Positions 14,119 to 42,961 are shown, counted from the stretch's first letter. The stretch: 64,000 bases of DNA from an uncultured Puniceicoccaceae bacterium (GCA_963933835.1 CAWVVV010000007.1:20083-84082); one strand, 5' to 3'. The notes: generated by a model from the letters alone, not told the origin. A program made the numbers and translations.

Positions 14119-15334
14119 GGTCAGCTCTACGACGGACTCATCCTCGACTGATCCCGTCCTCAGTCGCCTGACTGATCTTGCTCATGGGAGGACCTTTTCC
14201 TTTGGGGAACACTCGACCGAAAGCGGTGAGCGCGTACCAGTTGCTACCGGTGAATTCTGGACGTCTAAACAGCGCACCGGAAATCCTCTCCATGAGCTCT
14301 CCTATCGGGCTTGCTTTAAGCCGCAGCTGCCTGCGCTCTTCATCGAGGCCCTGACACGCCCAGGAGGCCACGTCCTCGATCCTTTCGGAGGTCGGGGCAC
14401 AACTGCCCTCGAAGCCCACCTTCGCGGCCGCAGGGCGACGAGCAGCGACCTGAATCCACTCAGCGCTATTCTTCTAAAACCAAGGATCAACCCACCCTCG
14501 CTGGTGGAGATCGAAACCGCACTCAGCGCTTTGCCTGAGCACTTCGCGGGAGATCTGCCCGAAGAGCTCCTGACTTTCTACCACCCAAAAACGCTCGAAA
14601 CCCTGTGTGCCTGGCGCGCGTATTGGATCGAGCGTGGCGACAAACTGACGCCCGCTGAAAACTGGATTCGAATGGTCGCAACCAATCGACTGACAGGACA
14701 CAGCCCCGGTTTCTTTTCCGTCTACACGATGCCGCCTAATCAAGCCGTGAGTGTGGCGAGCCAAACCAAGATCAATCAGCGCCGGAACCAAACGCCACCC
14801 TTCCGCGAGGTGAAAGCCCTTGTTCTACGCAAGTCACGCCAGCTTCTAAAGTCGTATCAGAAACCCACTACACAGCAACTTTCTCAAGCGCTCGTTGCGA
14901 GCGCCGATCACATCAGCTCACTCGAAGACAACTCGGTCGATCTCGTCGTAACCTCCCCTCCCTTTCTCAATGTCGTCGATTACGACGGAGACAATTGGCT
15001 GCGCAATTGGTTCAATGGCTTGCCCTCTCAGTCAGGCCTCTGGGTCACGCCTTCCGTTAGTGAATGGCAGGCACTCATGACAAAAGCCCTCCGCGAAATG
15101 CACCGCGTATTGCGCTCAAATGGATACGTTGCCTTCGAAGTCGGCGAAGTGCGCAAAGCCACCATCCCGCTTGAAGAGCAAGTCATCAACGCTGGAAAAG
15201 CAGCCGGCCTCCGGCCGATCGGTATCCTCGTCCACGCCCAGAACTTCACCAAAACCGCCCATTGCTGGGGCATTGATAACAATGCCAAGGGCACGAACAC
15301 CCAGCGCATCAGTCTTTTTCAGAAAAGGCCATAA
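14102..15334 (+). CDS. Orphan N4/N6 DNA methyltransferase
   Basis: VLDPFGGRGTT SAM-binding motif and VVTSPPF catalytic motif; TTG at 14102 has GGAGAG just upstream; no cognate endonuclease seen. Confidence 0.85.
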   Translation: MSSKTKVSSTTDSSSTDPVLSRLTDLAHGRTFSFGEHSTESGERVPVATGEFWTSKQRTGNPLHELSYRACFKPQLPALFIEALTRPGGHVLDPFGGRGTTALEAHLRGRRATSSDLNPLSAILLKPRINPPSLVEIETALSALPEHFAGDLPEELLTFYHPKTLETLCAWRAYWIERGDKLTPAENWIRMVATNRLTGHSPGFFSVYTMPPNQAVSVASQTKINQRRNQTPPFREVKALVLRKSRQLLKSYQKPTTQQLSQALVASADHISSLEDNSVDLVVTSPPFLNVVDYDGDNWLRNWFNGLPSQSGLWVTPSVSEWQALMTKALREMHRVLRSNGYVAFEVGEVRKATIPLEEQVINAGKAAGLRPIGILVHAQNFTKTAHCWGIDNNAKGTNTQRISLFQKRP

Positions 15335-16528: not shown

Positions 16529-16828
16529 AGCGCCGACCACATCAGTGCCCTCGAAGACAATTCGGTCGGTCTCGTCGTAACCTCCCCGCCCTTTCTCGAC
16601 GTCGTCGATTACGACGGAGACAATTGGCTGCGCAATTGGTTCAATGGCTTGCCCTCTCAGTCAGGCCTCTGGGTCACGCCTTCCGTTAGTGAATGGCAGG
16701 CACTCATGACAAAAGCCCTCCGCGAAATGCACCGCGTATTGCGCTCAAGTGGATACGTTGCCTTCGAAGTCGGCGAAGTGCTCAAGGGCACAAACACCCA
16801 ACGCATCAGCCTCTTCCAGAAGGCATGA
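16529..16828 (+). pseudogene. Diverged duplicate of the methyltransferase 3' end with a 132-bp in-frame deletion
   Basis: Aligns to 14900-15154 and 15287-~15325; reads ...VVTSPPFLDVVDYDGDNWLRNW...EVGEVLKGTNTQRISLFQKA*; no start codon. Confidence 0.9.
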
Positions 16829-26201: not shown

Positions 26202-28034
26202 ATGAAAGAGATGACCCCGTTAGAAGAGTTGCGCCACTCAGCCGCGCACATCCTTGCCACTGCTGTTCTCCGTGTTTTCCCGGAGGCCCAACTCGACATC
26301 GGTCCACCGACCGACAGCGGCTTCTATTACGACCTCGATCTCGATCATAAGCTCACGGCCGACGACCTCGTTAAAATCGAGGAAGCGATGAAGGCTGTGG
26401 CGAAAGAGAATCAGCGCTTCGAACGCTTTGAACACTCCCGCGAGGAAGCCACCGCCCTGATCAAGGAAATGGGGCAGGAACGCTACAAACTCGGTCGTCT
26501 CGCGGACATCCCCGAAGGCGAAGCGATTTCCTTCTACCGCAACGGCGAATTCACTGATCTCTGCGCTGGCACGCACATCAAGTATTCAAAGAAGCTCAAA
26601 GCCTTCAAGCTCCTCTCCATCGCGGGCGCCTACCACCGCGGTGATGAGAAGAACAAGCAGCTCCAGCGCATCTACGGAACCGCCTTCCCAACCAAAGACG
26701 AACTCGCCACTTACCTCGAGAATCTCGAAGAGGCGAAGAAGCGCGACCACCGCAAACTCGGCAAAGACCTCAAGCTCTTTCACATCGACGAAGACGTTGG
26801 CCAAGGCCTCGTCCTCTGGACTCCAAATGGTGCCGTTGTCCGCCAAGAGCTGCAGAACTTCATCGGCGAAGAGCTGCGCAAGCAGGGCTACAACCAAGTC
26901 TTTACGCCCCACATCGGAAAACTCGGCCTCTACAAGACCTCCGGTCACTTCCCCTACTATCAGGAATCGCAGTTCCCTGCGCTCGTCGACCGCGACCAGA
27001 TCCAGGGACTCGCTGACGAGGGATGCACCTGTGCGCAGTTGGCCAATCAAATGGAAGCCGGCGACATCGAAGGCTTTCTCCTCAAGCCGATGAATTGCCC
27101 GATGCACATCAAGATCTTCGACAGCCAGCCTCACAGCTATCGAGATCTCCCCGTGCGCCTTGCTGAGTTCGGCACCGTCTATCGCTGGGAACAAAGCGGC
27201 GAGCTCAACGGCATGACCCGTGTCCGTGGCTTCACTCAAGACGACGCCCACATTTTTTGCACCCCCGAGCAACTCAACGACGAAGTCAAAGGCTGCCTCG
27301 AGCTCGTCAAAATCGTTTTCAAAACTCTCGGGATGAAAGACTACCGCGTTCGCGTGGGTCTGCGTGATCCCGACAGCACGAAGTTCGTTGGCAACCCAGA
27401 CAACTGGGACAAAGCCGAAGCGGCTTGTCGCGAAGCCGCCGAAGGCCTCGGCGTCCCCTTCAGCGAAGAGCCCGGCGAAGCCGCCTTCTACGGCCCGAAA
27501 ATCGACTTCGTGGTCAAAGACGTCATCGGTCGCGAATGGCAACTCGGCACTGTCCAAGTTGACTACGTTCTCCCTGAGCGCTTCGAGCTCAGCTACGTCG
27601 GCGCGGACAACGGCAACCACCCCCCTGTCATGGTCCACCGTGCACCTTTCGGCTCGATGGAACGCTTCACTGGTGTCCTCATCGAACACTTCGCAGGCAA
27701 CTTCCCCGCGTGGCTCTCCCCTGAGCAAGTCCGCCTCCTTCCGATCACCGATGCGCAGAACGACTTTGCTCGTGAAGTAGAAAAACAACTACACGACCAA
27801 GGTATCCGCACTTCGATCGACACCCAGAGCGACAAGTTCGGTGCGAAAATCCGCCGTGCAGAAATGGACCACGTCCCTTACATGTTCGTGATCGGAAAAA
27901 ACGAAGCCGCCGAAGGCCAAGTTACGATCCGCTCCCGCACGAACAAGTCCCACGAAGGTATGCTCCCCGCCGCCGAAGCCGTCGCCAAGATCATCGAGAT
28001 CGTGAAGACCCGGGAATTGCCGGAAGCGGGGTGA
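26202..28034 (+). CDS. thrS: Threonine--tRNA ligase (short N-terminus)
   Basis: RHSAAH, DLCAGTH, RDHRKLG, KPMNCP, RVRGFTQDDAH, AFYGPK, HRAPFGSMERF. Confidence 0.97.
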   Translation: MKEMTPLEELRHSAAHILATAVLRVFPEAQLDIGPPTDSGFYYDLDLDHKLTADDLVKIEEAMKAVAKENQRFERFEHSREEATALIKEMGQERYKLGRLADIPEGEAISFYRNGEFTDLCAGTHIKYSKKLKAFKLLSIAGAYHRGDEKNKQLQRIYGTAFPTKDELATYLENLEEAKKRDHRKLGKDLKLFHIDEDVGQGLVLWTPNGAVVRQELQNFIGEELRKQGYNQVFTPHIGKLGLYKTSGHFPYYQESQFPALVDRDQIQGLADEGCTCAQLANQMEAGDIEGFLLKPMNCPMHIKIFDSQPHSYRDLPVRLAEFGTVYRWEQSGELNGMTRVRGFTQDDAHIFCTPEQLNDEVKGCLELVKIVFKTLGMKDYRVRVGLRDPDSTKFVGNPDNWDKAEAACREAAEGLGVPFSEEPGEAAFYGPKIDFVVKDVIGREWQLGTVQVDYVLPERFELSYVGADNGNHPPVMVHRAPFGSMERFTGVLIEHFAGNFPAWLSPEQVRLLPITDAQNDFAREVEKQLHDQGIRTSIDTQSDKFGAKIRRAEMDHVPYMFVIGKNEAAEGQVTIRSRTNKSHEGMLPAAEAVAKIIEIVKTRELPEAG

Positions 28035-28116
28035 TCATTCGGACACGGGCGCGATGAATGCATGCCCTAGCTTCGACACACTTCCCCCGTTTTTACGCTG
28101 CCGGAGCAGGCCTCCA

Positions 28117-28167
28117 GTGAACAACTTGTGAACATCTCCGCCTCGCAGAAAGTGAACATATGTTTAC
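28117..28167 (+). promoter_or_regulatory. LexA-box-like motifs upstream of the IS91 transposase
   Basis: GAAC-AACTTGT-GAAC (28119-28133) and GAAC-ATAT-GTTT (28154-28165). Confidence 0.4.
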
Positions 28168-28179
28168 ATTCCGTGAGGC

Positions 28180-28744
28180 ATGTCCGCCCGCTATCGCCCT
28201 CGGCAGGCCCGAGCCTCGGCGCTCTGGCAATGCCTCCACACCGCCCTGCCGGATTTCCTGCGGCACTACGCGGAGCGCCACGCCTCTACCCTTGGTCCAC
28301 TGCTCCCCGAACGCCAAGCCGCCCTCGAGCGCTTCCTGCGCTGCGGCGATCTCAGCCAGGGCTTTCTCCGTGTGCGTTGTGAGGACTGCGACCACGAATA
28401 CCTTGTTCCCTATACCTGCAAACAGCGCGGGATCTGCCCGACCTGCCATCAACGCCGCAGCGTCGACCTCTCCGCCACCATCGCGACGGAGATCTGCGCC
28501 CCCGTGCCCCACCGGCACTGGGTCTTCACTATTCCACAACTCCTCCGCCCCGTCTTCCGCCGCGAGCCCCGCCGTCTCGGCCTCCTCGCCCGCCTCACCG
28601 CCGACTGCCTCACCGACTACCTCCGCGACCGCACAGGCCTACCCGAAGGCCGCCCCGGCATCGTCCTCGCCTTCCACACCTTTGGCGATCGATGATCCCG
28701 ATCCCTGGGCCCACGAGAGCGAGCCGATCTTCTGGAGCGATTGA
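28180..28744 (+). pseudogene. IS91-family transposase with large internal deletion
   Basis: FLRCG...CEDC...CKQRGICPTC zinc-binding domain, HRHWVFTIP, HTFGD then out-of-frame jump at GATC (28687) to the tail IDDPDPWAHESEPIFWSD*; HUH/Y2 core missing. Confidence 0.9.
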
Positions 28745-28957
28745 GCCACCCGTGCGGGAATGCAGGACCCCAGCTCGGCCCTGATGCGCCCGCACCTCCC
28801 GCGGCGCTGCTTCACCCTGCCCGCAAATCACATTCCAAACGGCAATTTCCTTGTCTTTTCAGCCCCAGCCCTCCAAAAACGCCCCAGATTTCAATCGACT
28901 CCCTCGCTCTCGCCTTCCGCCAACCACCGCTCGCCCATACACACGAACCCCTCCCCC

Positions 28958-29028
28958 TTAAACCCCCACCCGCTGGCGCGGGCTAAGGGTGCATCGTTAC
29001 TTTCCCGAAAAGCAAATTCCTATCAGTT
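28958..29028 (+). repeat. 71-bp direct repeat, copy 1 (oriIS-like end)
   Basis: ttaaacccccacccgctggcgcgggctaagggtgcatcgttactttcccgaaaagcaaattcctatcagtt, identical to 37858-37928. Confidence 0.95.
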
Positions 29029-29211
29029 GCTGGCCAAGCTCCGGAGTAAGTAGGCGGAACGAATACTCTTCTCCTGTTCCTAGAGCACTTTGCGGAAAGT
29101 AACCGATCCTAGGAAAATCAGGTTCATTCCGATGGCGGCCACTTGCGATTCCGTTGATTTAACCTGACGTTAGCATCCGATTGGAATTCTTCCAAAAAAC
29201 ACTCCTCTAAT

Positions 29212-29895
29212 ATGCGATTGCTGATTGTCGAAGATGATACCGAGGTTCGCGACTTTGTCTCCAAGGGATTCCGTGAATTGGGTGCGACCGTCGATACCGC
29301 GTCCGATGGTGCCGAAGGGTTGTTTTTGGGAAGCAGTGAATCCTACGATGTCATCATCGTCGATCGCATGCTTCCCAAGCTGGATGGGATTCGTCTGATT
29401 CAGGGATTACGAGGCATCGGAAAAGAGACCCCGGTCTTAATCTTAAGCGCATTGGGAGAGATCGACGACCGGGTGCTCGGACTCCGGGCGGGTGGCGATG
29501 ATTACCTGGTCAAACCCTTTGCATTCGCAGAACTGCATGCTCGAGTTGAAGTGCTTGGAAGGCGTTCAAATCGAGCCAGCGTTCCGGATCGAAGTAGCAT
29601 CCTGAGCGCACAGGACTTGAAAATGGATTTACTCAAACGTAGAGTGTCTCGCGGAACCGAAGATCTCGAATTGCAGGCCAAAGAGTTTCAATTACTGGAA
29701 TATCTATTGCGGAACAAAGGCACCGTGGTGACACGAACCATGTTGCTGGAGAATATCTGGGACTATCATTTCGATCCTCAAACCAATGTGATTGATGTTC
29801 ATGTCAGTCGATTGCGGAGCAAAATTGACCACCCGGAATCAAAGGAGAGCCTCATCCGAACAATCCGTGGAACTGGCTACATCATCGATGACTGA
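29212..29895 (+). CDS. OmpR-family response regulator
   Basis: LLIVEDD, DRMLP, GGDDYLVKPF, WDYHFDPQTNVIDVHVSRLR. Confidence 0.95.
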   Translation: MRLLIVEDDTEVRDFVSKGFRELGATVDTASDGAEGLFLGSSESYDVIIVDRMLPKLDGIRLIQGLRGIGKETPVLILSALGEIDDRVLGLRAGGDDYLVKPFAFAELHARVEVLGRRSNRASVPDRSSILSAQDLKMDLLKRRVSRGTEDLELQAKEFQLLEYLLRNKGTVVTRTMLLENIWDYHFDPQTNVIDVHVSRLRSKIDHPESKESLIRTIRGTGYIIDD

Positions 29896-31270
29896 TTCGA
29901 GGAACTACTTCCGAAGCTCCAGTTTCAAAATGGCACTCTTCTTCACGGTGCTTTTGAGCGCGGCGGTTTTGAGTTTGGGATACTTTCTGTATGATTATGG
30001 GCGAGAAGAGTATCAGCGGGAGAGCGAACTGGTCATCGATGCGGAGATCGAGAATCTTTTGCTAGAGCTCAAACTCAACACGGAAGAATCGCTCAAAGAG
30101 ATTGTTGATGAAAGAGCGGTTGAACGTGAAGGGGTTTTCTATCTCTTGGTCGATTCGCAATCGAATTGGCTCGCGGGTGACTTGAGGTCCATTCCGGACG
30201 CCGTTGCTCGCATTGCCGAAGGGGTCATTCGTTTTAAGGTCGATGTTGGCACCGGGGAAAAATCTGACTGGCGAATCGTCGCGGCAAAAATTCATACTTT
30301 CCCGGACCAAGCTCAGTTGTTGGTCGCACGGGATGTCAGTGTGATTAACGAACGATTCCTGTGGCAGCGCACCTTAAGCTTTCTCAGCATCGCTTGTTTA
30401 TTCTCCATTGTTCTGGTCAGCTTTTTTATCAGCTTTTTCGTCGTCACTCGGATCAATCGAATGTCCAACATCGCCCTTGAGATTGTGGCGACAGGCAATC
30501 TATCGAAACGGCTAGCGGTGGATTCGCGATGGGATGACATGAGCCATCTCGCGGGGGTCTTCAATCAGATGCTCGATCGGATCGAGTCATTGATGGAAGG
30601 CGTCAAACAAGTATCTGACAACATTGCACACGATCTACGAACCCCTCTCGCTCACCTTCGAAATCGGTTGGAGGTGATGCAGCAGAGCGACCCTGAGAGT
30701 GAAGAAGTCGCTGCTTTGATCAAGGAGTCCGATCGTTTGCTGCAGACCTTCGGCTCGCTTTTGCGGATTTCGAAAATGGATTCTGAAGTCGACCAATCAA
30801 ACTTTGAGAAAGTCGACCTCCAAAAGATCGCAACCGATTCCGTCGAGTTCTACCGCCCCATGGCGCTTGAGCAAAATATGGAGCTCCTCTTTGAGGGCGA
30901 ATCCTGTTTCATACGGGGCGATCGAAATTTGCTGTTCCAAGCCATCTCCAACGTAATCGACAATGCGATCAAGTACTCTCCCGCCGGAGGTCAGATCCGA
31001 TGCGTTCTAGTCGAAAATCAATCCACCGTTGAAATTGCTTTTGCGGATCAAGGCATCGGCGTTTCGGAAAAGGATAAAAAACGTCTTCTCGAACGGTTCT
31101 ATCGCTGCGATCCCAGTCGTTCGACCAGTGGCACTGGACTTGGACTCAGTCTGGTGGACTCGATCGTCCGCCTCCATGACGGGTCGATTGATTTTCAGGA
31201 TGCCCACCCAAATGGTCTCATCGTGAGGTTGACCCTTCCACGAAAGAGCGCAAAGATTACACAGAGTTAA
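29888..31270 (+). CDS. HAMP-domain sensor histidine kinase
   Basis: 2 TM, HAMP, AHDLRTPL H-box, NVIDNAIKY, DQGIG, GTGLGLS. Confidence 0.95.
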   Translation: MTDSRNYFRSSSFKMALFFTVLLSAAVLSLGYFLYDYGREEYQRESELVIDAEIENLLLELKLNTEESLKEIVDERAVEREGVFYLLVDSQSNWLAGDLRSIPDAVARIAEGVIRFKVDVGTGEKSDWRIVAAKIHTFPDQAQLLVARDVSVINERFLWQRTLSFLSIACLFSIVLVSFFISFFVVTRINRMSNIALEIVATGNLSKRLAVDSRWDDMSHLAGVFNQMLDRIESLMEGVKQVSDNIAHDLRTPLAHLRNRLEVMQQSDPESEEVAALIKESDRLLQTFGSLLRISKMDSEVDQSNFEKVDLQKIATDSVEFYRPMALEQNMELLFEGESCFIRGDRNLLFQAISNVIDNAIKYSPAGGQIRCVLVENQSTVEIAFADQGIGVSEKDKKRLLERFYRCDPSRSTSGTGLGLSLVDSIVRLHDGSIDFQDAHPNGLIVRLTLPRKSAKITQS

Positions 31271-31273
31271 TCT
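31252..31273. promoter_or_regulatory. AGATTA-N8-TAATCT palindrome, copy 1
   Basis: AAAGATTACACAGAGTTAATCT about 46 bp before the oxidoreductase start. Confidence 0.65.
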
Positions 31274-31319
31274 AACCGCCATTCGGCAGCAAGTGAGGAT
31301 ATGCTAAGGTATCCCCTTG

Positions 31320-32591
31320 ATGAAAACCTCGAGAAAGAAAATTGCAGTAATCGGTGGAGGCATTTCCGGTCTCGGAGCGGCCTACCTACTGAAAGATGCG
31401 ACGGATCTAACACTCTTCGAGAAGAATGCCTATCTCGGTGGACACAGCCGAACCCTTGAAGTGGAGGTTAGTGGAAAAACGGTGCCGGTCGACACAGGCT
31501 TCATCGTCTATAACGAACGGAACTACCCACTCTTAACAGGGCTGTTTCGGCACCTGGAAGTTCCAGTGGTCGAGTCAAACATGTCCTTCGGAGTTTCCAT
31601 CAATGACGGCTGGTTGGAATTTTCATCAGGTGGTTTGCAAGGGCTATTCGGAAGTATTCGCAATCTTACAAATCCAAAGATGTGGCGACTGGTCAGTGAT
31701 ATTTTGAAGTTTAATCGCGGTGCGATGAAATATCTTGAAGCCCCAGGGGACATTTCACTTGGACAGTGTTTAGACGAGATTGGCGTCAGCGATTGGTTCC
31801 GCTACTATTACATCCTGCCAATGGGCGGATCCATCTGGAGTTGTCCGGTCGAACAAATCCTAAACTTTCCCGCTGCAGCCTTTCTTCGGTTTTTCAACAA
31901 TCACGGTCTATTGACGGTGGCCGACCAGCCGCAATGGTACTCGGTCGTCGGGGGTTCGAAAGAATACGTGAACAGGCTGATCGACCAATTCTCAGGACAA
32001 ATAAAAATACGCTCTGGCGCTAAGAGCGTTTCGCGAATCAGCGACGGAGTTCAGGTGACCGATGAAACGGGAGAGGTCGCGGTATTTGATGAGGTGATCA
32101 TCGCAGCCCATGCGGATGAAGCACTTAAGCTGAACGAAACTCCCACTCCCGACGAAGAAGAGATCCTCTCTGCCTTCAAGTATCAACCCAACGAAGTGAT
32201 CTTGCACACCGACGATTCCTTTATGCCAAAACGTCGATCGGCATGGGCAAGTTGGATCTACTCTTCTGAAGAAAAGGCGGACCGGAGCTACGCAATCTCA
32301 CTTAGCTATTGGATGAACAATCTTCAGGCCTTGGACACCGACACCGACGTCTTCGTGACTTTGAACCCCGGCAAAGCACCCGCCGAGAAGACCATCCTCA
32401 ACCGCCATATTTTTGACCATCCGGTTTTTGATCAGGCCTCGATTGAAGCGCAGAAACGGATCGAGGAAATCCAAGGAAAGGACCGCGTTTGGTATTGCGG
32501 TGCTTACCAGCGAAACGGATTTCACGAGGACGGGCTTTGGAGCGCGGTTAGAGTTGCCGAAAAAATGGGGATCACACCCAGTTGGATATAG
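31320..32591 (+). CDS. FAD-dependent oxidoreductase (UfaD-like fatty acyl desaturase)
   Basis: IAVIGGGISGL, GGHSRT, VDTGFIVYN, YWMNNLQ, GFHEDG; neighbours DUF1365 and cfa-like genes. Confidence 0.85.
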   Translation: MKTSRKKIAVIGGGISGLGAAYLLKDATDLTLFEKNAYLGGHSRTLEVEVSGKTVPVDTGFIVYNERNYPLLTGLFRHLEVPVVESNMSFGVSINDGWLEFSSGGLQGLFGSIRNLTNPKMWRLVSDILKFNRGAMKYLEAPGDISLGQCLDEIGVSDWFRYYYILPMGGSIWSCPVEQILNFPAAAFLRFFNNHGLLTVADQPQWYSVVGGSKEYVNRLIDQFSGQIKIRSGAKSVSRISDGVQVTDETGEVAVFDEVIIAAHADEALKLNETPTPDEEEILSAFKYQPNEVILHTDDSFMPKRRSAWASWIYSSEEKADRSYAISLSYWMNNLQALDTDTDVFVTLNPGKAPAEKTILNRHIFDHPVFDQASIEAQKRIEEIQGKDRVWYCGAYQRNGFHEDGLWSAVRVAEKMGITPSWI

Positions 32592-33364
32592 CCTCAAAAT
32601 TGCTTTTCTCAAAGGTTTCGCACCGGCGGCTTTTCCCAAAAGAGAACCGATTCTCCTACCGTGTGTATAGTCTGGTTTTTGATCCCGAGAAGATTGATGA
32701 ACTGGCGGATGGGCGTTGGTTCGGCGTCGATCGATGGGGACTGTTTTCTTTTCATCGAAAAGACCATGGAAATTGCGATGGAAGCTCGTTAACCGAATGG
32801 GCAAAAGGAGTGGTCAATCGGTATGGGGTCGATTTAGGGGTAAAGCGCTTTGTCCTCATCGCGATGCCCCGTGTGCTCGGCTACGGATTCAATCCAGTCA
32901 GTTTTTGGCTGTGCTTGGATGAGGAGGATGCGCTGAAAGCAGTCATTGCCGAAGTCCACAACACCTTTGGCGAACGTCACCTCTATTTCTGCCGAAACAA
33001 AGACGGAACCGCGATTGAATCGAATGACGCCATCGAGGCGGAAAAGATGTTCCACGTTTCTCCATTCATGGAACGATCGGGACACTACCGATTTAAATAC
33101 AATCTGAGCGACCGAGGCTTCTCGGCAGTGATCAATTACTACGACCTAGAGGGGAGGAAAAAGCTCCTAACATCGATGGCAGGAACATTTTCGGACAATA
33201 GCCGTAGACAGCAGCTTTCTGCCTTCATTCGCTGCCCGTTGGTTACCCTGAAAACGGTCGCGATGATTCACTGGCAAGCCGCCAAGCTAGCGCTCAAAGG
33301 GATTCGTTATGTTCCGAAACCTCCCCAGCTAAACGATTCATACAATTCTGAATCGAAAGATTAA
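32582..33364 (+). CDS. DUF1365 family protein (UfaO-like)
   Basis: V.HRR..P, PRVLGYGFNPVSFW, AEVHNTFGERH, K.FHVSPF, IHWQA. Confidence 0.9.
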   Translation: MDIASKLLFSKVSHRRLFPKENRFSYRVYSLVFDPEKIDELADGRWFGVDRWGLFSFHRKDHGNCDGSSLTEWAKGVVNRYGVDLGVKRFVLIAMPRVLGYGFNPVSFWLCLDEEDALKAVIAEVHNTFGERHLYFCRNKDGTAIESNDAIEAEKMFHVSPFMERSGHYRFKYNLSDRGFSAVINYYDLEGRKKLLTSMAGTFSDNSRRQQLSAFIRCPLVTLKTVAMIHWQAAKLALKGIRYVPKPPQLNDSYNSESKD

Positions 33365-33377
33365 TTATAGTTAATCT
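33356..33377. promoter_or_regulatory. AGATTA-N8-TAATCT palindrome, copy 2
   Basis: AAAGATTAATTATAGTTAATCT about 54 bp before the cfa-like ATG. Confidence 0.65.
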
Positions 33378-33431
33378 TCCGGCCACCCGGAGTAGAGGCG
33401 ACTCGTGATAGAATGCAGAAGTAATAAAGCC

Positions 33432-34595
33432 ATGTTTGAACAAATCATTCAAAAACGATTCTTAACTTCTCTTGAACAAGTTCGATTCGGAAGTATCGAG
33501 GTCACGACTCCTTCTGGACAGATCCATATATTCGAGGGAAGCGAGCTAGGAGCGAAGGCGGACTTTCACCTGGAAAGTTGGTCGGTCGTCGCGAACTTAG
33601 CGTCGAAAGGCGAAGTGGGCTTTGCTTCCGATTATCGAGATGGCCTATGGAACACCTCCAATTTGGAAGCATTGATCACGTTTTCTCTGGAAAACGAGGA
33701 ACACCTCACTGGTTTCATTGAAGGCAACTGGTTGTCACGAATCGGGGCCCGCATAGGCTACCTTCTGAATTCAAATTCCCTGCGAGGAAGTAAGCGCAAC
33801 ATCCATGCTCACTATGATTTAGGGAATGAGTTTTATTCATTGTGGTTGGATTCCACGATGTCCTATTCATCGGCTCTGTATCTTGATCCGAATGAACCGA
33901 TCGCCGTGGCTCAAGAGAACAAATACGACCGACTGCTCGATCGGATTGAAGATCCCTCTGGATCCATCCTCGAAATTGGTTGTGGATGGGGTGGATTCGC
34001 AGAACGGGCCATCACTCGAAACGACCGAGAAATCAAAGGCGTCACGCTCTCGAAGGAGCAGCTTGATTTTGCATCGAAACGTTTGAACGGATCCGCTGAT
34101 TTCGCTTTTCAGGACTATCGTCATATCCAAGGAAAATTCGACAACATCGTTTCAATCGAAATGTTTGAAGCGGTGGGAATTAAGTATTGGAATTCCTACT
34201 TCTCGCAACTGAGAAGACTCCTCAAGACAGGTGGAAAGGCGCTTGTTCAATCGATCGTAATCGAAGAGAAGCATTTTGAATCCTACCGAAAGGGTTCTGA
34301 CATGGTCCGCAGTTTCATCTTTCCAGGCGGGATGCTCCCAAGTGTCGAACGCTTCGAGAAAACGGCCCAAGAAGGAGGAATGGAAACAAAAGACGTTTTC
34401 CTATTCGGTCACGATTACGCCCGGACCCTTCGAGTTTGGTTGAAGAATTTCGATGCGAATATAGCGGAGGTAAGAAGCCTTGGGTTCGATGAGTCATTCA
34501 TCAGGATTTGGAGATACTATCTCGGTTCGTGTGCTGCCAGTTTTCAAACCGGACGGATCAATGTAGGTCAGTTCGAACTACAGGCTGCAAGGTGA
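33432..34595 (+). CDS. cfa: Cyclopropane-fatty-acyl-phospholipid synthase family SAM methyltransferase (UfaM-like)
   Basis: NIHAHYDLGNEFY, ILEIGCGWG, SIEMFEAVG, IFPGG; ATG at 33432. Confidence 0.88.
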   Translation: MFEQIIQKRFLTSLEQVRFGSIEVTTPSGQIHIFEGSELGAKADFHLESWSVVANLASKGEVGFASDYRDGLWNTSNLEALITFSLENEEHLTGFIEGNWLSRIGARIGYLLNSNSLRGSKRNIHAHYDLGNEFYSLWLDSTMSYSSALYLDPNEPIAVAQENKYDRLLDRIEDPSGSILEIGCGWGGFAERAITRNDREIKGVTLSKEQLDFASKRLNGSADFAFQDYRHIQGKFDNIVSIEMFEAVGIKYWNSYFSQLRRLLKTGGKALVQSIVIEEKHFESYRKGSDMVRSFIFPGGMLPSVERFEKTAQEGGMETKDVFLFGHDYARTLRVWLKNFDANIAEVRSLGFDESFIRIWRYYLGSCAASFQTGRINVGQFELQAAR

Positions 34596-35152
34596 TGAAC
34601 CACGCCATCCGCTCAGTCGCATCAAAACTGCGAATCCTTTTTCTCACGATCATTTGTTTTTCGTGCTCAGCCACGCTTTTGGCATCTGTTCCAAAAATAG
34701 TCGAAGTTCAAATTGAAGACGCGCAACTGGTAGGGGAAGCCCGGATGAAGGTTCTCTTCTTCAACCTCTATGACATTGCTCTTTTCGCGCCAAAAGGAAC
34801 TTTCAATTCCTCCCTACCCTTTGCCTTGGAATTGAACTATCTTCGAGAAATTAAAGCCCGGGTCATCGCCGAACTCTCCGCGGAGGAAATGCGTCGACAA
34901 GGAAACAGTGAAGTAGATCTGGCTCGTTGGTATCGACAGATGGAGTTCATTTTCCCGGATGTCAAAAAAGGCACTTCCCTCATTGGTATATTCGATCAGG
35001 CCGGTGAAACACACTTTTACCAAGACAATGAATTGATTGGAACCATCGCTGATCGAGCATTTTCTGAATCCTTCAGCGCGATCTGGCTCGGTCCCGATTC
35101 CAGAGTTCCCAAGATCAAAAGGATACTGACCGGAGAGCAACCAATCGAATGA
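34595..35152 (+). CDS. Chalcone isomerase-like protein
   Basis: Signal peptide, G.A....F.LY, FPDVKKG, F..IWL; overlaps the cfa stop. Confidence 0.8.
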   Translation: MNHAIRSVASKLRILFLTIICFSCSATLLASVPKIVEVQIEDAQLVGEARMKVLFFNLYDIALFAPKGTFNSSLPFALELNYLREIKARVIAELSAEEMRRQGNSEVDLARWYRQMEFIFPDVKKGTSLIGIFDQAGETHFYQDNELIGTIADRAFSESFSAIWLGPDSRVPKIKRILTGEQPIE

Positions 35153-36486
35153 GACCGCTAAAGAAGACAGATCTCTTCAATTACGGAATTCTCGCATTTC
35201 CACTCTCAATTGCAGGACTTCCCCTCTATCTGCAGGCCCCTGATTTATATGCAACGGAGCGGGGAGTTTCGCTAGCATTGATGGGGATAGTCTTATTGGG
35301 ACTACGTTTCTTCGACGCGATTCAAGATCCTCTCATCGGAAGGTTGTCCGATCGATTCCAGCGCAACCGGAACCTCATCATGGGTGGCGGGACGATTACC
35401 CTGTGTATCGGTCTTTTCGCACTGATGAACCCGCCCGCAGAGGCCGGGATTATCTGGTTTTCCATCTGGATAGCGTTATCGGCCACTGCCTATAGTATCG
35501 CCACGATCAACCTGAATACAGTGGGAGGGCTCTGGTCCTCCAATCGATTTGAGCGAACACGCATTGTTACGATTAGAGAGGGACTTGCCATCAGCGGGGT
35601 TCTTTTTGGGGTGGTCACCCCGGCCGTCCTCGCGCTGTGGTTGGGGAGAGCACTGGGGTTTCAGATTTTTTCCCTGATCATCGCCGCGATTCTCTTGCTA
35701 GCTTGGATTCGTTATCGCCGGTGGAGTCGTGAACACAACCCCTCGAGCGCTGTTAGCCAAATGGAAGCACAGCCTACGGCGGCCCATTTTGCCTCCTTTC
35801 CCAAAGAGAGCGGCACTCGAAAATTGCTGTTTGTCTCGCAACTCGGCGCCTTAGCGTCGGCCTTCCCCGCGGTCCTCTTTCTCCTCTTTGTGCGGGAAAG
35901 ACTTGGAATGGATGAATGGTCTTGGCTCTTTCTCCTCCTCTATTTTGGAGCTGCGATTGTCGGATTTTCTTTCTGCAAGAATTTGTCCCGTAAGGTTGGG
36001 AAAGTGGCTGCCTGGCGAATCACAATCTGGGGTTCCATCATTGCATTTAGCGGGGCGCTCTTCGCCGGAGAGAACAGCGGAATACTCTTCGGGATAGTAT
36101 GCCTCGGCAGCGGGTTCTTCTTGGGAGGCGATGTCATCTTCCCGAATTCTTTGATGGCCGATCGAGTCGGCAAGAATACTGACGGTCGTCGAACGGCGAG
36201 CTCTGCATTCGCATGGCTTTCCTTCATCTACAAATTTGCGCTGGGACTAGCGGCCGCGGTCGCTTTTTCAGTTCTGGAATTTGTCGGTTTCAAATCCGGA
36301 ACCACCCACGGAGCAGGCGTCCTCATGGTACTCACCTTTCTCTACGCGGCCTTGCCAATCATTTTAAAAATAGCCACCGCGCTGCTCCTCAAAACGTGGC
36401 AACAGAATCTCGAAGGAAATGAAATTTATGAAAAAACGAATAGCAATGAGCTTGGCAGCGATCGCTGCCATGATTTTAGCACTTAA
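35149..36486 (+). CDS. MFS (GPH-like) transporter
   Basis: About 12 TM, DAIQDPLIGRLSDR, ERTRI motifs. Confidence 0.85.
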   Translation: MRPLKKTDLFNYGILAFPLSIAGLPLYLQAPDLYATERGVSLALMGIVLLGLRFFDAIQDPLIGRLSDRFQRNRNLIMGGGTITLCIGLFALMNPPAEAGIIWFSIWIALSATAYSIATINLNTVGGLWSSNRFERTRIVTIREGLAISGVLFGVVTPAVLALWLGRALGFQIFSLIIAAILLLAWIRYRRWSREHNPSSAVSQMEAQPTAAHFASFPKESGTRKLLFVSQLGALASAFPAVLFLLFVRERLGMDEWSWLFLLLYFGAAIVGFSFCKNLSRKVGKVAAWRITIWGSIIAFSGALFAGENSGILFGIVCLGSGFFLGGDVIFPNSLMADRVGKNTDGRRTASSAFAWLSFIYKFALGLAAAVAFSVLEFVGFKSGTTHGAGVLMVLTFLYAALPIILKIATALLLKTWQQNLEGNEIYEKTNSNELGSDRCHDFST

Positions 36487-36976
36487 TGGATGCCAAAGTA
36501 ATATGAAAATTGAAACCTACGCAAATGAACATCCGACCGTCAGTGTACGGGAATATTTTAATGGCCCGATCAAGGCTTGGGGATTGATCCAGAATCGAAA
36601 GGGAGATGTGACGACTCGCTTTGATGTAGAGATGATGGGAACTTGGGACGGCGATACAGGCACCCTCGAAGAAGATTTCCGCTACTACGATGGTCGTGAG
36701 CAAAAGCGAGTATGGACGATCAAAGAGTTGGAATCAGGTCAGTTCTCGGGAAGTGCGTCTGACATTGTGGGCACCGCCACGGGCGAACAAAAGGGCAATG
36801 CGCTTCGGTGGAACTATCAGATGGATATCGAAGTCGATGGAAGAACCTATCGGATTCAATTCGACGATTGGATGTGGTTGATGAACGACGGCATTCTCAT
36901 CAATCGTTCTTATCTGAAGAAATTCGGTTTCACGGTGGCAGAACTGACGCTGTTCATGCAGAAGACTGAATCGTGA
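36428..36976 (+). CDS. DUF3833 family lipoprotein
   Basis: LNGC lipobox, YFNG...AWG, EDF.Y.DG...RVW, FDDWM. Confidence 0.88.
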   Translation: MKKRIAMSLAAIAAMILALNGCQSNMKIETYANEHPTVSVREYFNGPIKAWGLIQNRKGDVTTRFDVEMMGTWDGDTGTLEEDFRYYDGREQKRVWTIKELESGQFSGSASDIVGTATGEQKGNALRWNYQMDIEVDGRTYRIQFDDWMWLMNDGILINRSYLKKFGFTVAELTLFMQKTES

Positions 36977-37713
36977 GTGATCGATTGAGAGGGAAACACT
37001 ACTGGCTAGTCGGAGCCAGTTCGGGAATTGGACGCGCCTTGGCCTTGGAACTCGCAAAGCGAGGGGTGCACCTGACCTTGTCTGCGCGCTCGCTGGAGAA
37101 GCTCCAATCGCTGCAAAAAGAAATCGGGGATAAAGCAACGATCAAGCAACTGGATGTGACGGATGCGGATGCAATTGATGGAGTCGTATCGGAGCTTGAA
37201 GACCTCTCAGGAGTGGTATTCCTAGCCGCCGCATACAATGCGGAATCGGGTAATTCTCGAACCGATGCAAAGCGCATTTTCGAGACGGTTAACATCAACC
37301 TAATCGGAGGCATCTATTTAGCGGAGGCAGTAAAAGCGAAGCTTCAAAGCGCTCCCGATGGAGTCCTCGCTCTTTACGGAAGCATTGCTGGGTACAGTGG
37401 TCTGCCAAACGGGCAGCCTTACTCGGCGACCAAGGCAGGGCTGATCAATTACGCAGAAAGCCTAAGAACGGAACTCCGGGGTTCTGTTGATGTGAAGATA
37501 ATCAATTCCGGTTTCGTCGACACTCGCCTAACGCGTAAAAATGATTTCCGGATGCCGATGCTCATTACACCAGAAGTAGCCGCACGCCGAATTGCCGATG
37601 GTTTAGAAAGCCGACGTTTCGAAATTGTTTTCCCCCGACGATTTGCCTGGGTTGCGAAGCTCCTGCGAGGCCTACCCTATTGGCTCTTTTTTCGGGCGAC
37701 TCGGCGGCTTTGA
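36973..37713 (+). CDS. SDR family oxidoreductase
   Basis: GASSGIG, YSATK, GFVDTRLT.KNDF.MP. Confidence 0.92.
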   Translation: MSDRLRGKHYWLVGASSGIGRALALELAKRGVHLTLSARSLEKLQSLQKEIGDKATIKQLDVTDADAIDGVVSELEDLSGVVFLAAAYNAESGNSRTDAKRIFETVNINLIGGIYLAEAVKAKLQSAPDGVLALYGSIAGYSGLPNGQPYSATKAGLINYAESLRTELRGSVDVKIINSGFVDTRLTRKNDFRMPMLITPEVAARRIADGLESRRFEIVFPRRFAWVAKLLRGLPYWLFFRATRRL

Positions 37714-37857
37714 GGCTTGATTCAATGGCTAAAGCACCCGCTATCTAGCTTGGATATCCCGGATTGTAAACAACTCGGGATGTAGGCGAAGAAACTGCAC
37801 TTGCTACAAAAACCCACTACTGATCCGATTTTCCGCTATGAGTCAGTGAACCCCAGG

Positions 37858-37928
37858 TTAAACCCCCACCCGCTGGCGCGGGCTAAGGGTGCATCGTTAC
37901 TTTCCCGAAAAGCAAATTCCTATCAGTT
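37858..37928 (+). repeat. 71-bp direct repeat, copy 2 (solo oriIS-like end)
   Basis: Identical to 28958-29028, exactly 8900 bp downstream; ...CCTATCA is followed by GTTC. Confidence 0.95.
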
Positions 37929-38075
37929 CATCACCGGCGCCTGGACACGTTTCCCTCGTAAGCGAACATCCGAAGAGTGAACAACGGGGATGCCCCCCTG
38001 CCGACCTTCTAAACGCCCCCACCCCTTTGGGATCGAAGCTTGCGACTTGCCTTAGGAATTCCGCAGATTTCAAGC

Positions 38076-39992
38076 ATGTCCTCTCTCGAAGAACCCCTCC
38101 GTTTACTACAAGAGCGCTTTGGCTTTCAGGAATTTCGGGCCGGACAGATAGCTGTTATTCAGTGGCTCTTGGAAGGACGTAGTGCGGGCGCGATATTTCC
38201 GACGGGTTCGGGCAAAAGTCTTTGCTACCAATTGCCCTCCTTGCTTCTACCGGGGCTCACACTTGTCATCTCGCCGCTACTGGCGCTGATGAAGGATCAA
38301 ATCGATAGCCTGCGCGCAAAGGGTATCCAAGCGGAACGTCTCGATTCGAGCCTCGAAGAGGCGGACTACCGACGCGTGACCGATGCCATTCGCGCGGGCA
38401 CAGTCAAACTCCTGTTTGTCGCGCCTGAACGGCTAGGCAACGAACGTTTCCTTAACCTCATTCGCGGGCAAACCATCAGCCTACTCGCGGTCGATGAAGC
38501 CCACTGTATCTCCTCTTGGGGACACAACTTCCGCCCCGATTACCTAAAGTTAGCCGACGCTGCAAAAACACTTAAAGTCGAGCGCGTGCTCGCACTCACC
38601 GCGACGGCCACACCACAAGTCGCTACCGATATGGCAGAAGCCTTTGGCATCGCCGCGGATGACATGACCAACACCGGCTTTTATCGTCCCAACCTCGAAC
38701 TGCGTGTCACGGCCTGCCACGATGCCGGGCGCCCCGCCCTCCTGCTTCAACGACTCAAGGAGCGGCCTGCTGGCGCCACGATTGTGTATGTGAGCCTACA
38801 GCGCCACGCCGAAGAAGTCGCGGCCTGCTGGCAAGCCGCCGGCTACAACGCAGCCCCCTATCATGCCGGCATGGCTGCGGACAAACGTAGCAGCACGCAG
38901 GAAGCCTTCATGGAAGGACGCATCCCCATCATTTGTGCCACGATCGCCTTTGGTATGGGTATCGATAAGTCTGACATCCGCTACATCTACCACTACCACA
39001 TGGCCAAAGGCTTCGAAAGCTACATGCAAGAAATCGGGCGGGCGGGGCGCGACGGGCAGCCTTCGGTTTGCGAACTTTTAGCCTGCCCAGACGATGCCAC
39101 CACTTTAGAAAATTTCGTCTACGGAGACACGCCCGACAACGTCAGCTTACGCGGGCTTCTCGAAGAACTGTTGGAGGAGGGCACAGGCATTGACATTGCC
39201 CTGACCGACCTCTCCCGACGCTTCGACATGCGTCAACTGGTGATCAGCACTCTACTCACACGGCTCGAACTCGCAGGCCTGATTCGCGCTCAAGGGCACT
39301 ACTACGGCAGTATTCGTTTCGCTCCAAAAAGCGACGACAAGACCCTACTCAGTCAATATCCCGCCAACCAAGCAGCCTTTCTAGCGAAGGTTTTCACCTC
39401 CTGTAGCAAAGCAAAGAAATGGGTCACCTTGGATATGGATCAAGCGATCGCCACGACCAAGCAAGATCGCAGCGTCATCCTTCGTGCATTGGAAAGTTTA
39501 GAAAGCAAAGGCCTAGCGGAACTGCAACTCGCCGGCTATCGGCAACGTTTCGAACAACTCGTTCAAGAGCCAGAGATCGACCAGATCACCGAAGCAATGA
39601 CCGCCAGCTTTGAAACGCATGAGCAGATGGAGATTGATCGAATCCACCGCATGCTCGACTACGCGAACGAACCAAGCTGCCTGACTGGAAGATTGCTCCG
39701 ATACTTTGGCGAAGAAATCAAACCCTGCGGCCACTGCAGCGCCTGCCATGGGCAGGCACAAAAAGAACTCACGCCTCGCAAGCGTCCAAGCATGGACAAC
39801 TGCGATCTAGAAGGCTTTGACGCACTCACGCAAGCGCACCCAAAAGCGTTGGAACGCCCACGCCAGCAAGCACGTTTCCTGTGCGGCCTCAACTCACCCG
39901 CAGTTTCCGCGGTGCGCGGCCTACGCGGGAATGCCCTCTTTGGTCGCTGCAGTGAAGTGCCTTTTGCCGATGTCTTAACGACTCTGCTTTGA
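38076..39992 (+). CDS. recQ: RecQ-family ATP-dependent DNA helicase
   Basis: [50 protein letters not shown] zinc motif. Confidence 0.9.
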
Positions 39993-40301: not shown

Positions 40302-41273
40302 ATCGAGAAGATCTATTGCCTGAATCGCGGCGGCGAACCCCACGCGAGAACCCTCAAGTCTCTCAAGGATCGAGGGCTCGACGTATCAAGCGAGCGCATT
40401 GAGTCCTTCAGCGCCGACCTGACCCTGCCGGACTTTGATCTGGATCCAAACGCGCTAGCAGGAGTCAACCTCGTGATTCACAACGCATGGAGCGTGAATT
40501 TCAAGATGGGTGTCTCATCTTTTGAAAACCACCTTCAAGGAACGCGTAACCTGATTGATTTCAGCGCCAAGTCGAAGGCTCGCTTTTTCTTTGTCTCATC
40601 GGTTTCCGCCGCGGCCCGCTCGGGCAACCCTATTACGGAATCGCATCTCAATCACTTCACGGACGCTCAACAGATCGGCTACGCTCGTTCGAAACATGTT
40701 GCCGAGCGGTTGTGCCTTCATGCCTCTCTCGCGGGACTCGATGCCCGTGTCTTAAGAGTGGGACAAATCGTGGGTGATACGCGAAAAGGACAGTGGAATG
40801 AGACTGAGGCCATTCCGCTCATGATCCGCGCCGCAGTGAGCATGGGTGCGCTACCCACGCTGAACGACACCCTGAACTGGCTTCCAATCGACGCCGTTGC
40901 ACAAGTTGTGACGGAGCTCTGTCATGACCCCGAGCACCGTGACGTCTATCACTTGGTCAATCCAAAGTCCTTCAACTGGGGACAAGATTTACTGCCGATG
41001 CTGCGTAGCGCTGGCTTAAACTTTGAGGAAGTCTCGACGCAAGAATCGCTCGAGCGCCTCGCGACTAGCGATCCAGACCCCGAGGTCAATCCGACGATCA
41101 AGCTGCTCGAGTTTTTCAGAACCAAATACGCTTCGCAGAAGAGCGGACTTGCCGTGAAGTTCGAGACTGAATCGACTGAACGTGTCAGCCCAGCACTGCG
41201 GACGGTTGGTGCACCCGATGCCACCTTGATTCGCAAAATGGTGGATTACTGGACGCAGCAATGTTGGAAATAG
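40302..41273 (+). pseudogene. Thioester-reductase (R) domain fragment of an NRPS-like/carboxylic-acid reductase
   Basis: Frame open from IEKIYCLNRG... through IHNAWSVNF, GYARSK, RVGQIVGD; Rossmann Gly motif and A/T domains absent. Confidence 0.8.
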
Positions 41274-41498
41274 CCGTAGAAGCCACCACCACAGCGCAAC
41301 TGGAACTTTAGCGGACTACCCCTCTGCTCGCTGACCAATCGTCCGTAGCAAGCCATACGCTGCTAATGGGAAGAGGGCAAAGAACACCCACGGGGAGTAT
41401 CCAAAAAACGCGACACCAGAGTATCCGATGAGACTCGTTAGCACCATTGTCGACAGCGCGTAAGGCAATTGAGTGGCCACATGATGCAAGTGATCACA
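41202..41498 (+). repeat. 297-bp direct repeat, copy 1 (reductase 3' end plus orphan antiporter 3' end)
   Basis: Matches 42665-42961 with 11 substitutions counted by eye. Confidence 0.93.
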
Positions 41499-42664: not shown

Positions 42665-42961
42665 ACGGTTGGTGCACCCGATGCCACCTTGATTCGCAAA
42701 ATGATGGATTACTGGACGCAGCAATGTTGAAAATAGCCGTAGAAGCCACCACCACAGCGCAACTGGAACTTTAGCGGACTACCCCTCTGCTCGCTGACCA
42801 ATCGTCCGTAGCAAGCCATACGCTGCTAATGGGAAGAGGGCAAAGAACACCCACGGGGAGTATCCAAAAAACGCGACACCGGAGTATCCAATGATACTCG
42901 CTAGCACCATTGTCGACAGCGCATAGGGTAATTGGGTGGCCACATGGTGCAAGTGATCACA
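42665..42961 (+). repeat. 297-bp direct repeat, copy 2
   Basis: Matches 41202-41498; contains the functional antiporter 3' end. Confidence 0.93.

Follow-up and report, generated by a model that had tools for sequence, protein, structure and literature searches.

Likely capture of a nine-gene lipid operon between ori-end copies of an IS91/ISCR-family element in a marine Puniceicoccaceae bacterium, and related ori-end arrays in other genomes

We analysed a 64,000-nt stretch of DNA from an uncultured Puniceicoccaceae bacterium (GCA_963933835.1 CAWVVV010000007.1:20083-84082, labelled G000:C7 in this work and hereafter called the window), in which two identical 71-bp repeats enclose a nine-gene lipid operon directly downstream of a broken IS91/ISCR-family element. 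The cargo was likely captured by the transposase of this element while it copied its own end of about 70 bases, and the cassette is likely one unit of a little-described type of gene-collecting array. Our reading of the reaction, to which we assign a probability of roughly 0.55 from comparison of the sequences, is that the DNA would be nicked at the ori, 4-78 nt would be copied, and the strand would be rejoined with or without foreign DNA, each capture thereby duplicating the ori.

The two repeats were identical across all 71 nt at a start-to-start distance of 8,900 bp, and no other pair in the 16 direct-repeat families of the window was 100% identical. The positions and spacing of the repeats agreed with the original prediction, as did the nine intact, co-oriented frames called between them, the assignment of the repeats to oriIS-type ends of an IS91/ISCR-family element, and the placement of the left repeat at the downstream end of an IS91 transposase remnant. 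The remnant matched PF14319 (2e-20) and NF033538 (9e-26), both under the cut-off for this truncated protein, and its zinc domain was 60% identical to that of the G028 protein, a longer relative. It ended one residue past the HTFGD sequence, right ahead of the HUH motif that is present in all four longer relatives. Compared with the G028 element, about 947 bp including the HUH and YxLR motifs were deleted, and the C-terminal tail followed directly. Similarity to the G028 element began at 28117; the true left end lies within 28035-28116, with no second copy to fix it. A search with the long G028 protein revealed no other transposase of the family in G000 (1.94 Mb, 97% complete).

When the 71-bp repeat was compared with the whole genome by BLAST, as the original prediction had proposed, the window pair was recovered together with one further copy, which was degenerate, only 60 nt long and without the ori core (G000:C4:7140-7199). 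This degenerate copy (L029) keeps the left edge of the repeat family and has an integrase-like open reading frame (ORF) nearby. A variant of the repeat was also observed on an 18-kb contig (run X1 record 6; L093), which had a depth near that of the host and was absent from G000; it may be a fourth copy left out of the G000 assembly. A metagenome scan with the window hairpin returned eight loci, namely two copies of the region, one of the C4 region, two related repeats elsewhere (L092 and L093) and three apparent chance hits. The window repeat folded no better than its shuffles (z -0.83), and hairpin strength was not a general property, as the fold z ranged from -2.6 to +1.8 over five repeats with no end-to-end stem. 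No plus-strand sigma-70 consensus was found at either window repeat; -35/-10-like hexamers were visible in the ori ends of the Trichlorobacter plasmid pIAE1, which carries the same ori core.

The edges of the repeats followed regular rules. At the right edge, 37 of 192 distinct ori sites (15 genomes) carried a tandem duplication, for example of CAGT, TCAGT, TCCTATCAGT or whole empty repeats; 33 of these fit a boundary 2 nt past CCTATCA, and three fit the boundary assumed in the original prediction. Duplications with a period of 4-12 numbered 34, against a control mean of 5.6 (sd 2.4, maximum 15 in 500). The seven copies on pIAE1, four of one end and three of a related one, diverged past CCTAT+4, and a 37-bp duplication stopped at the same place. 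As judged from these junctions, the element most likely ends CCTATCAGT. The two bases after CCTATCA travelled with the repeat, and other families ended in TT, TC or CC rather than GT. No tetramer consensus was found at bases +3 to +6 in the 192 sites, which displayed only a weak avoidance of G (G in 11/192). The GTTG and GTTC that had been noted past the two window repeats are present; they are not IS91 target tetramers, because the end of the element includes the GT.

The left edge of the downstream copies was (T)TAA(A)C or CAAC and lay at a distance fixed within each family: 56 nt in all 12 full G231 copies (TAACCCCCC), 49 in all five G028 copies and mostly 75-78 in genus g152. In all seven contexts examined, the first copy of the row lay in a C-run/TTAA/C-run motif, and transposase sequence was present upstream in five of them (the window, G028, G231, G309 and, as a fragment, G273 C17). 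Because downstream copies retain only the right half of the C5-TTAAA-C5 motif, the fixed left edge lies in its centre. The motif presents two or more G-tracts on the displaced strand, where a G-quadruplex is a matter of speculation. The C5-TTAA-C5 pattern was not a marker by itself, as it was found in 5/301 genomes, below the reversed control.

We found similar repeats in many related genomes. A 17-nt ori core (at most one mismatch) was present in 69 of 401 genomes of the class, compared with three for the reversed control, and a frequent layout was a same-strand row with the transposase followed by repeat-cargo-repeat-cargo. In G028, a near-full transposase is followed by three tandem 49-50-bp repeats (two empty units) and then by two cargo units of 4.2 and 3.1 kb, each closed by a repeat. 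In G231, an intact transposase gene precedes identical 56-bp repeats with units of 56 to 3,053 bp; 13 of the 14 sites in this genome lie on C206 and C220, two contigs that may or may not adjoin. G419 contained 209 sites against three short transposase fragments. Neighbouring sites less than 10 kb apart shared a strand in 70 of 81 pairs, a count drawn from six genomes picked for many sites, in which G419 contributes 100 of its 209 sites and kin and repeated sites are not independent. The ori core also occurred in NC10 and delta-proteobacterial genomes.

The 102 units collected measured 36 to 9,156 bp (median about 1.7 kb, cut-off 12 kb) with a GC content of 0.35-0.67. They carried genes for FkbM methylases, glycosyltransferases, a P-type ATPase, a peptidase, a desaturase and similar proteins, with a Pfam match in 21 of the 42 frames scanned. 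Several units started or stopped mid-gene, and the genes lay on either strand, with several per unit. For the G231 and G028 cargo genes, separate copies were found elsewhere in the same genomes at 75-80% DNA identity, and gene-length homologs in relatives at 64-81%. The junction flanks were not contiguous in either of the two cases tested against homologs, carA in G231 and a phosphoribosyltransferase (PRTase) gene in G028. In particular, one G231 unit end was identical over 98 of 98 nt to the start of an intact carA in G273, which belongs to another genus, and was cut within the first ten codons. The carA piece joined the repeat at the usual edge of the family, and the own carA of G231 was 77% identical at the amino acid level. 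Additionally, G228 has an independent unit behind an intact transposase with an FAD-oxidoreductase/DUF1365 pair, 39% and 29% identical to those of the window.

Several further arrangements were observed in these arrays. The G228 unit (L074, G228:C90, 2977-6751) also holds a tRNA-Ser, and ahead of its closing ori, where a short repeat would be expected, lie 197 bp from the 3' part of a transposase gene. In G231 (L070, C206, 7932-8002), a full repeat has a 17-nt inverted ori core joined to its left edge, and the unit between them is apparently inverted, an arrangement that suggests strand switching at the ori. Four G419 loci (L101, L109, L114 and L115) contain recurring units of 150-210 bp with a CTTTGCGTCTTCGCGTCTTTGCGTGAG-type hairpin repeat, which is presumably the kind that flanks GxxExxY genes. 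Plasmid pIAE1 of Trichlorobacter lovleyi (L210), a cultured strain, carries several related transposases whose ends share the ori core and are separated by chromosome-like genes (shc, cbiB, nadD-gmk, groES and trigger factor) and integron remnants. This strain is a possible experimental handle.

According to the proposed mechanism, the HUH transposase would nick the bottom strand at the ori end and stay bound, and the freed 3' end would copy a few bases or the whole ori of 50-78 nt before being rejoined. Rejoining without an insert would produce a stutter or an empty repeat, and rejoining around incoming foreign DNA would produce a new repeat-cargo unit. Each capture would thus leave one repeat and the array would grow, because rejoining with foreign DNA adds a repeat-cargo unit. 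Finished units may later move or leave as circles of cargo plus ori, and selection would then keep useful whole operons such as the nine-gene lipid operon. In G419, adjacency enriched likeness between repeats, as 18 of 43 adjacent pairs were alike against 141 of 2,802 pairs between loci.

Some results weigh against this reading. Adjacent repeats were at least 85% alike in only 60 of 106 pairs, and pure local copying is insufficient because many rows mix repeat families; the units probably also move. Four of the 37 duplications lay off the +2 boundary. Only one junction, that with carA, had a near-identical donor; the match spans 98 nt in draft genomes and, because it lies at a contig edge, may be a binning or assembly artefact. 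Three further donor searches were empty: 0/5 genomes gave a hit, 45 genomes gave only repeats, and in 61 genomes no near-identical match lay outside G423. For the one cargo protein of the window that was searched widely, no donor above 64% protein identity was present among the matches listed. Finally, insertion of a mini-element followed by read-through would lead to identical products.

This last possibility is a live rival. In such a two-step route, a miniature made of the 50-78-nt ori end, arising by an early stop at C-TTAA-C, inserts, reads through in a one-ended manner, leaves as a circle of cargo plus ori and enters a resident ori through crossover or transposase exchange. The arrays would then be a by-product of ordinary IS91 behaviour, and the route is close to the circle of ori and cargo that the original prediction had offered as an option. 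We consider it possible rather than probable. The mixed repeat families in the G419, G423 and G428 rows fit mobile units, and the carA donor continues with T past the junction, which fits the weak preference for bases other than G (181/192). IS801 is reported to form right-end miniatures of fixed length (229, 360 and 679 nt) and to mobilise adjacent DNA (PMC3189936, the part available), and one IS801 copy can stop precisely where another ends (PMC6354349, likewise in part). In contrast, no lone copies of their own families were found outside the arrays of G231 (13/14 sites clustered) or G273 (5/5), carA is intact in G273, and the 4-11-nt stutters are left unexplained by this route. The carA junction had also been considered as a refutation of miniature insertion; this argument was dropped, as the GT belongs to the element.

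Two other explanations were weighed against capture by the transposase. It is highly improbable that the repeats are attC-like sites, or integron sites inserted at attC, that were moved by an integrase: their left edges (YTAAC) and right edges (GTT/GTA) loosely resemble the attC core-site consensus, but the array contigs of G000, G028, G231 and G273 had no tyrosine recombinase among the genes listed (two were listed in G000 in total), some repeat families end in TT, TC or CC rather than GT, the units are multi-gene with genes on both strands and cut genes, and the window repeat folds as weakly as stated above. Nor do we find it at all plausible that the operon is ancestral at this locus and that a miniature ori element landed on each side of it in two separate insertions. 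Both cargo ends do lie in non-coding DNA and a third, degenerate repeat copy exists elsewhere in G000, but the repeats are 100% identical, repeat 1 is the element's native end, composition shifts within the repeats, and the operon has a narrow distribution, as described below.

Horizontal gain of the cargo, which the original prediction had claimed, agreed with both composition and distribution. GC content was 49.8% compared with a genome median of 53.7%, a value as low as this being found in 2 of 428 equal-sized windows, and the tetranucleotide distance was matched or exceeded in 7 of 428 (windows overlapping the cargo included in both counts); GC, GC skew and tetranucleotide use all shifted between the repeats. 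This version of the operon turned up in five of the 401 genomes of the order, the two same-genus genomes not among them, and more distant DUF1365 genes (29-34%) were common in the family. The same nine-gene order, including the two-component pair, was present in G011, G438 and G440 at 42-74% protein identity and without an ori repeat. Because of this repeat-free order, the operon predates its capture, with a relative as its most likely source, which speaks against assembly of the cassette by the element. The downstream neighbour of the operon was common to G438 and G440 and the upstream neighbours differed; the cargo ends matched no flank of G011, G438 or G440. The closest relatives of the cargo methylase were 57-64% identical (best 120 of 8,000 candidates scored). 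Among the matches listed, one of the closest cargo homologs was named Opitutales by its source, and the named homologs beyond Opitutales were proteobacterial, mostly alpha, at 51-57%. For the three core genes, the closest named match was a Paracoccus plasmid cluster at 39-51%.

The cargo probably makes furan fatty acids, as judged from its gene content and active-site residues. A UfaD-like flavoprotein, a DUF1365 protein and a CMAS-family methylase are all present together, in the order of RPA2571-2570-2569. In the available part of the published work, UfaM, UfaD and UfaO are described as sufficient for the furan fatty acid 9M5-FuFA, UfaO carries DUF1365, ufaD-ufaO-ufaM of R. palustris are adjacent as RPA2571-2570-2569, and RSP1089-1087 are dispensable (PMC7380195). 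Of the Cfa bicarbonate triad, the window methylase retains Glu239 and Tyr317 and has Gln in place of His266. This His is kept in the Cfa proteins of Halomonas, E. coli and Lactobacillus, unlike in the window methylase, and the tested Halomonas UfaM has Gln at this position, as given in the part of PMC12089945 available. Read by eye for this one reference pair, the motifs are EMIEAVG and LQAITI in Halomonas UfaM, and GMFEHVG and LHTIG in Halomonas Cfa. The resemblance to Ufa genes in the original prediction therefore held, with an active site that is UfaM-like and not Cfa-like as it had been described. UfaM would methylate cis-vaccenate, UfaD would desaturate the product and UfaO would add O2 to yield the furan ring (after Lemke 2020), and the pathway would run under the linked two-component pair in place of sigmaE-ChrR.

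A less likely alternative, though not a remote one, is that the product is no more than a methyl-branched or cyclopropane fatty acid, or that the enzymes have another lipid as their substrate. The best curated matches of the methylase are cyclopropane synthases, all under cut-off. The likeness to the R. sphaeroides and R. palustris Ufa proteins, including the proven UfaD and UfaO, rests on order, domains and lengths instead of direct sequence comparison, which also weighs against the overall reading. On the other side stand the replacement of His266 by Gln, as in the tested UfaM, and the gene order of a set sufficient for 9M5-FuFA.

Compared with the known Ufa loci (RSP2144, RSP1091-1087 and RPA2571-2569; PMC7380195, in part), the window operon is similar in its R. 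palustris gene order, in the lengths of the RSP1088 and RSP1087 counterparts and in UfaM-type residues. It differs in being led by an OmpR/kinase pair rather than sigmaE-ChrR, in an added chalcone-isomerase-like gene and in lying inside a unit that was likely captured. We take the chalcone-isomerase-like protein to have a fatty-acid-binding fold. Given the linkage, control of the operon by the two-component pair is probable. The RNA contigs available, X6 and X8 from one sample, cover 31316-35752 and parts of other cargo genes and give no level or strand; they covered neither the transposase remnant nor 37146-38600. The contigs start at 31319 (X6) and 31316 (X8), which suggests expression from a promoter before ufaD; an ATTA-N4-AGTTAAT box ahead of this gene is invariant in four of four genomes. 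The box, although invariant, overlaps the stop codon of the kinase gene.

A palindromic box ahead of the transposase start is a candidate LexA (SOS) site of the host. Its pattern (at most one mismatch) occurs at three sites in G000: in the element, 6 nt before a polymerase-like gene, and at one other place. We take the N-terminus of the polymerase-like gene product to be that of a Y-family (DinB-like) polymerase. SOS control of the transposase is likely on this sequence pattern, because the box recurs at only two other places in G000, one of them directly before a likely DinB-type gene. The lexA promoter of G000 carries GAACA repeats. The palindrome TGTTC-N4-GAACA, which we take to be the Verrucomicrobia LexA motif, occurs at one site in G000, away from the element. 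The same palindrome was observed in G433 (L143, C147) ahead of a transposase start, just before 3548, and differs from the window box; if its meaning is as we assume, this suggests that the SOS site is retuned per host.

By its relationships, the element belongs to the IS91 family in the broad sense, which includes ISCR, and would work like ISCR gene capture. All four long relatives pass NF033538 and have HUH and YxLR motifs. As summarised in the part of PMC13181058 available, IS91 transposes by a rolling circle from oriIS through bottom-strand circles with termination failure in 1-14% of events, an ori end of about 80 bp suffices, targets are CTTG/GTTC, and the family is stated to make no target duplication. 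Unlike IS91 proper, the elements described here had no GTTC/CTTG target past the end in the 192 sites, and their ori end was duplicated at junctions (37/192 sites). With IS91, IS801 and IS1294 they share the NF033538 match, and IS801 is known both for ori-end fragments of fixed size and for ori-to-ori termination; the miniatures here lie in ordered rows and are not scattered.

Among the IS91-like gene capturers meant here by ISCR (ISCR1, ISCR2/ISVsa3, ISCR8/ISPps1 and ISCR28), similarity extends to an HUH transposase with YxLR, 26-27% identical to the ISVsa3 and ISPps1 transposases, to an ori with TTCCTAT 200-400 nt past the transposase gene, to the 'sandwich' of a gene between two ori ends in ISCR28 (bioRxiv 2025.01.22.634252, in part), and to the likely LexA control, shown for ISCR1, ISCR2 and ISCR8 (PMC13393415, in part). 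In contrast, the repeats here are 36-78 nt long with a family-fixed left edge and are not variably truncated elements, the rows reach at least 12 repeats behind one transposase, and the cargo is ordinary chromosome of environmental bacteria, not resistance genes. The ISCR clade Ia profile (NF052416) gave 102-166 bits against a cut-off of 925. Integrons are similar in that a single enzyme gene heads a same-strand row of units that each end in a repeat, in enzyme-less orphan rows and in likely SOS control. They differ on both of the features compared, as there is an HUH transposase and no tyrosine recombinase, and no attC hairpin; the units here are also multi-gene chromosome pieces in either orientation, often cut mid-gene. 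The nearest published cases are the ISCR28 sandwich and the IS801 miniatures. In the literature on IS91/ISCR ori arrays and ISCR28 that we searched, no account was found of ordered, fixed-length rows of ori copies with chromosomal cargo, and key reviews outside that search may describe part of it. What is new here is the edge rules, the stutters, the spread in the class and the whole-operon example; the cargo is a known pathway in a new host.

The runs that hold at least half of the window stretch are marine metagenomes. The region is covered in all 30 bins by DNA contigs of X2, X3 and X4, which come from two studies, and in 14 of 30 by those of X5. As judged from gene order, the segment from 28035 to about 54350, recQ included, is a variable region, because in the same-genus genome G002 a homolog of the window gene at 54400 directly follows thrS. 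The remainder of this region may have been gained in G000 or lost in G002, as one comparison fits both. An empty thrS-recQ site, which the original prediction had expected to seek in relatives, was not found; thrS of G002 has the neighbour just named, and recQ had no match at E<=1e-100 in either same-genus genome and was found in 6 of 36 family genomes. The downstream neighbour of thrS differed in each of five relatives. The proposal that the cassette could still excise found no support in G000, which has no intact transposase, nor was a circle or empty-site joint found in contigs of eight runs, although contigs drop rare variants. The X1 depth was 10.5-10.9 over the cassette and 10.1 and 8.5 over the flanks, which indicates neither absence nor activity of excision. 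Because its transposase gene is broken, the cassette is likely stranded; it is probably fixed now, save for possible rare recombination between the repeats.

Other repeats and a gene fragment were observed in the window. Direct repeats of 297 bp (41202-41498 and 42665-42961, 96%) flank an aldo/keto-reductase-like gene; the piece between them has CCCCTTATCCCAA at both ends and a GGGGTCAAACGTGACCCC palindrome ahead of the second copy, and it looks like a second, unrelated insertion type within the same variable region. A 263-bp direct repeat (14900-15162 and 16529-16791, 95%, 1,629 bp apart) consists of a methyltransferase-like coding stretch, and a stand-alone NAD_binding_4 (terminal reductase-type) fragment, apparently without its N-terminus, lies past recQ at 40473-41273.

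Table 1. Positions of the cassette, its genes and its borders, counted from the first letter of the window
Feature	Position	Strand	Remarks
thrS	26202..28034	+	ORF; host gene, left border of ~26-kb variable region
Internally deleted IS91/ISCR-family element	28117..29027	+	69% DNA identity to G028 element over 28117-28548
Palindromic box, candidate for a likely host LexA (SOS) site	28152..28167	.	13 nt ahead of transposase start
Transposase remnant, zinc-binding N-terminus only	28180..28695	+	N-terminal 171 aa, without HUH and catalytic Tyr region
Orphan transposase C-terminal tail (last ~20 codons)	28688..28744	+	55% identical to G028 tail, 20 positions
C5-TTAAA-C5 motif	28953..28967	+	downstream repeat copies retain right half only
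Repeat 1, native oriIS end	28958..29028	+	element end inferred at 29027 (CCTATCAGT)
Cargo, likely captured, 8.83 kb	29028..37857	+	both ends in non-coding DNA
OmpR-family response regulator	29212..29895	+	TIGR01387 1e-70, under cut-off; 72-74% to g10 homologs
Sensor histidine kinase (HAMP, HisKA, HATPase_c)	29888..31270	+	profile matches
ATTA-N4-AGTTAAT box and -10-like TATGCT before ufaD	31255..31305	+	candidate regulator site and internal promoter
FAD oxidoreductase (Amino_oxidase-type), likely UfaD desaturase	31317..32591	+	PF01593; gene order as RPA2571 / RSP1091
DUF1365 protein, likely UfaO oxygenase	32582..33364	+	PF07103 2e-74
CMAS-family methyltransferase, likely UfaM	33405..34595	+	PF02353; Gln at E. 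coli Cfa His266 position, EMFEAVG
Chalcone-isomerase-like protein (Chalcone_3)	34595..35152	+	PF16036
MFS_2/GPH transporter	35149..36486	+	profile matches
DUF3833 protein, 185 aa	36419..36976	+	RSP1088 = 186 aa
SDR oxidoreductase, 246 aa	36973..37713	+	RSP1087 = 245 aa
Repeat 2, putative copied oriIS end, closes unit	37858..37928	+	end inferred at 37927
RecQ-family helicase	38076..39992	+	first gene past repeat 2, inside variable region

Gene pickup by ISCR elements has so far been argued mostly from resistance plasmids, and the environmental arrays record the reaction repeatedly and cleanly. They provide testable rules: a cut past CCTAT+4, a copying stop at C-TTAA-C, stutters and empty repeats as leftovers, and a take of 0.1-9 kb of chromosome. 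If one protein and a site of about 70 bp can insert kilobases of unrelated DNA, core genes could be transferred in this way in Verrucomicrobiota, and the system might serve as a tool. The window indicates that capture can deliver an intact, apparently expressed pathway, whose furan fatty acids are likely membrane-protecting, into a 1.9-Mb marine genome. We put forward, tentatively and well aware that it may prove wrong, that one IS91/ISCR-type clade of HUH transposases is a dedicated, SOS-induced DNA-sampling machine with a second built-in cut site, the C-run/TTAA/C-run motif (G-quadruplex-like on the displaced strand), which duplicates its short ori end each time, lays down ordered repeat-spacer rows of arbitrary pieces of neighbours' chromosomes and would represent a third growing array beside integrons and CRISPR. 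If true, such a machine could import whole operons, for example a nine-gene lipid pathway.

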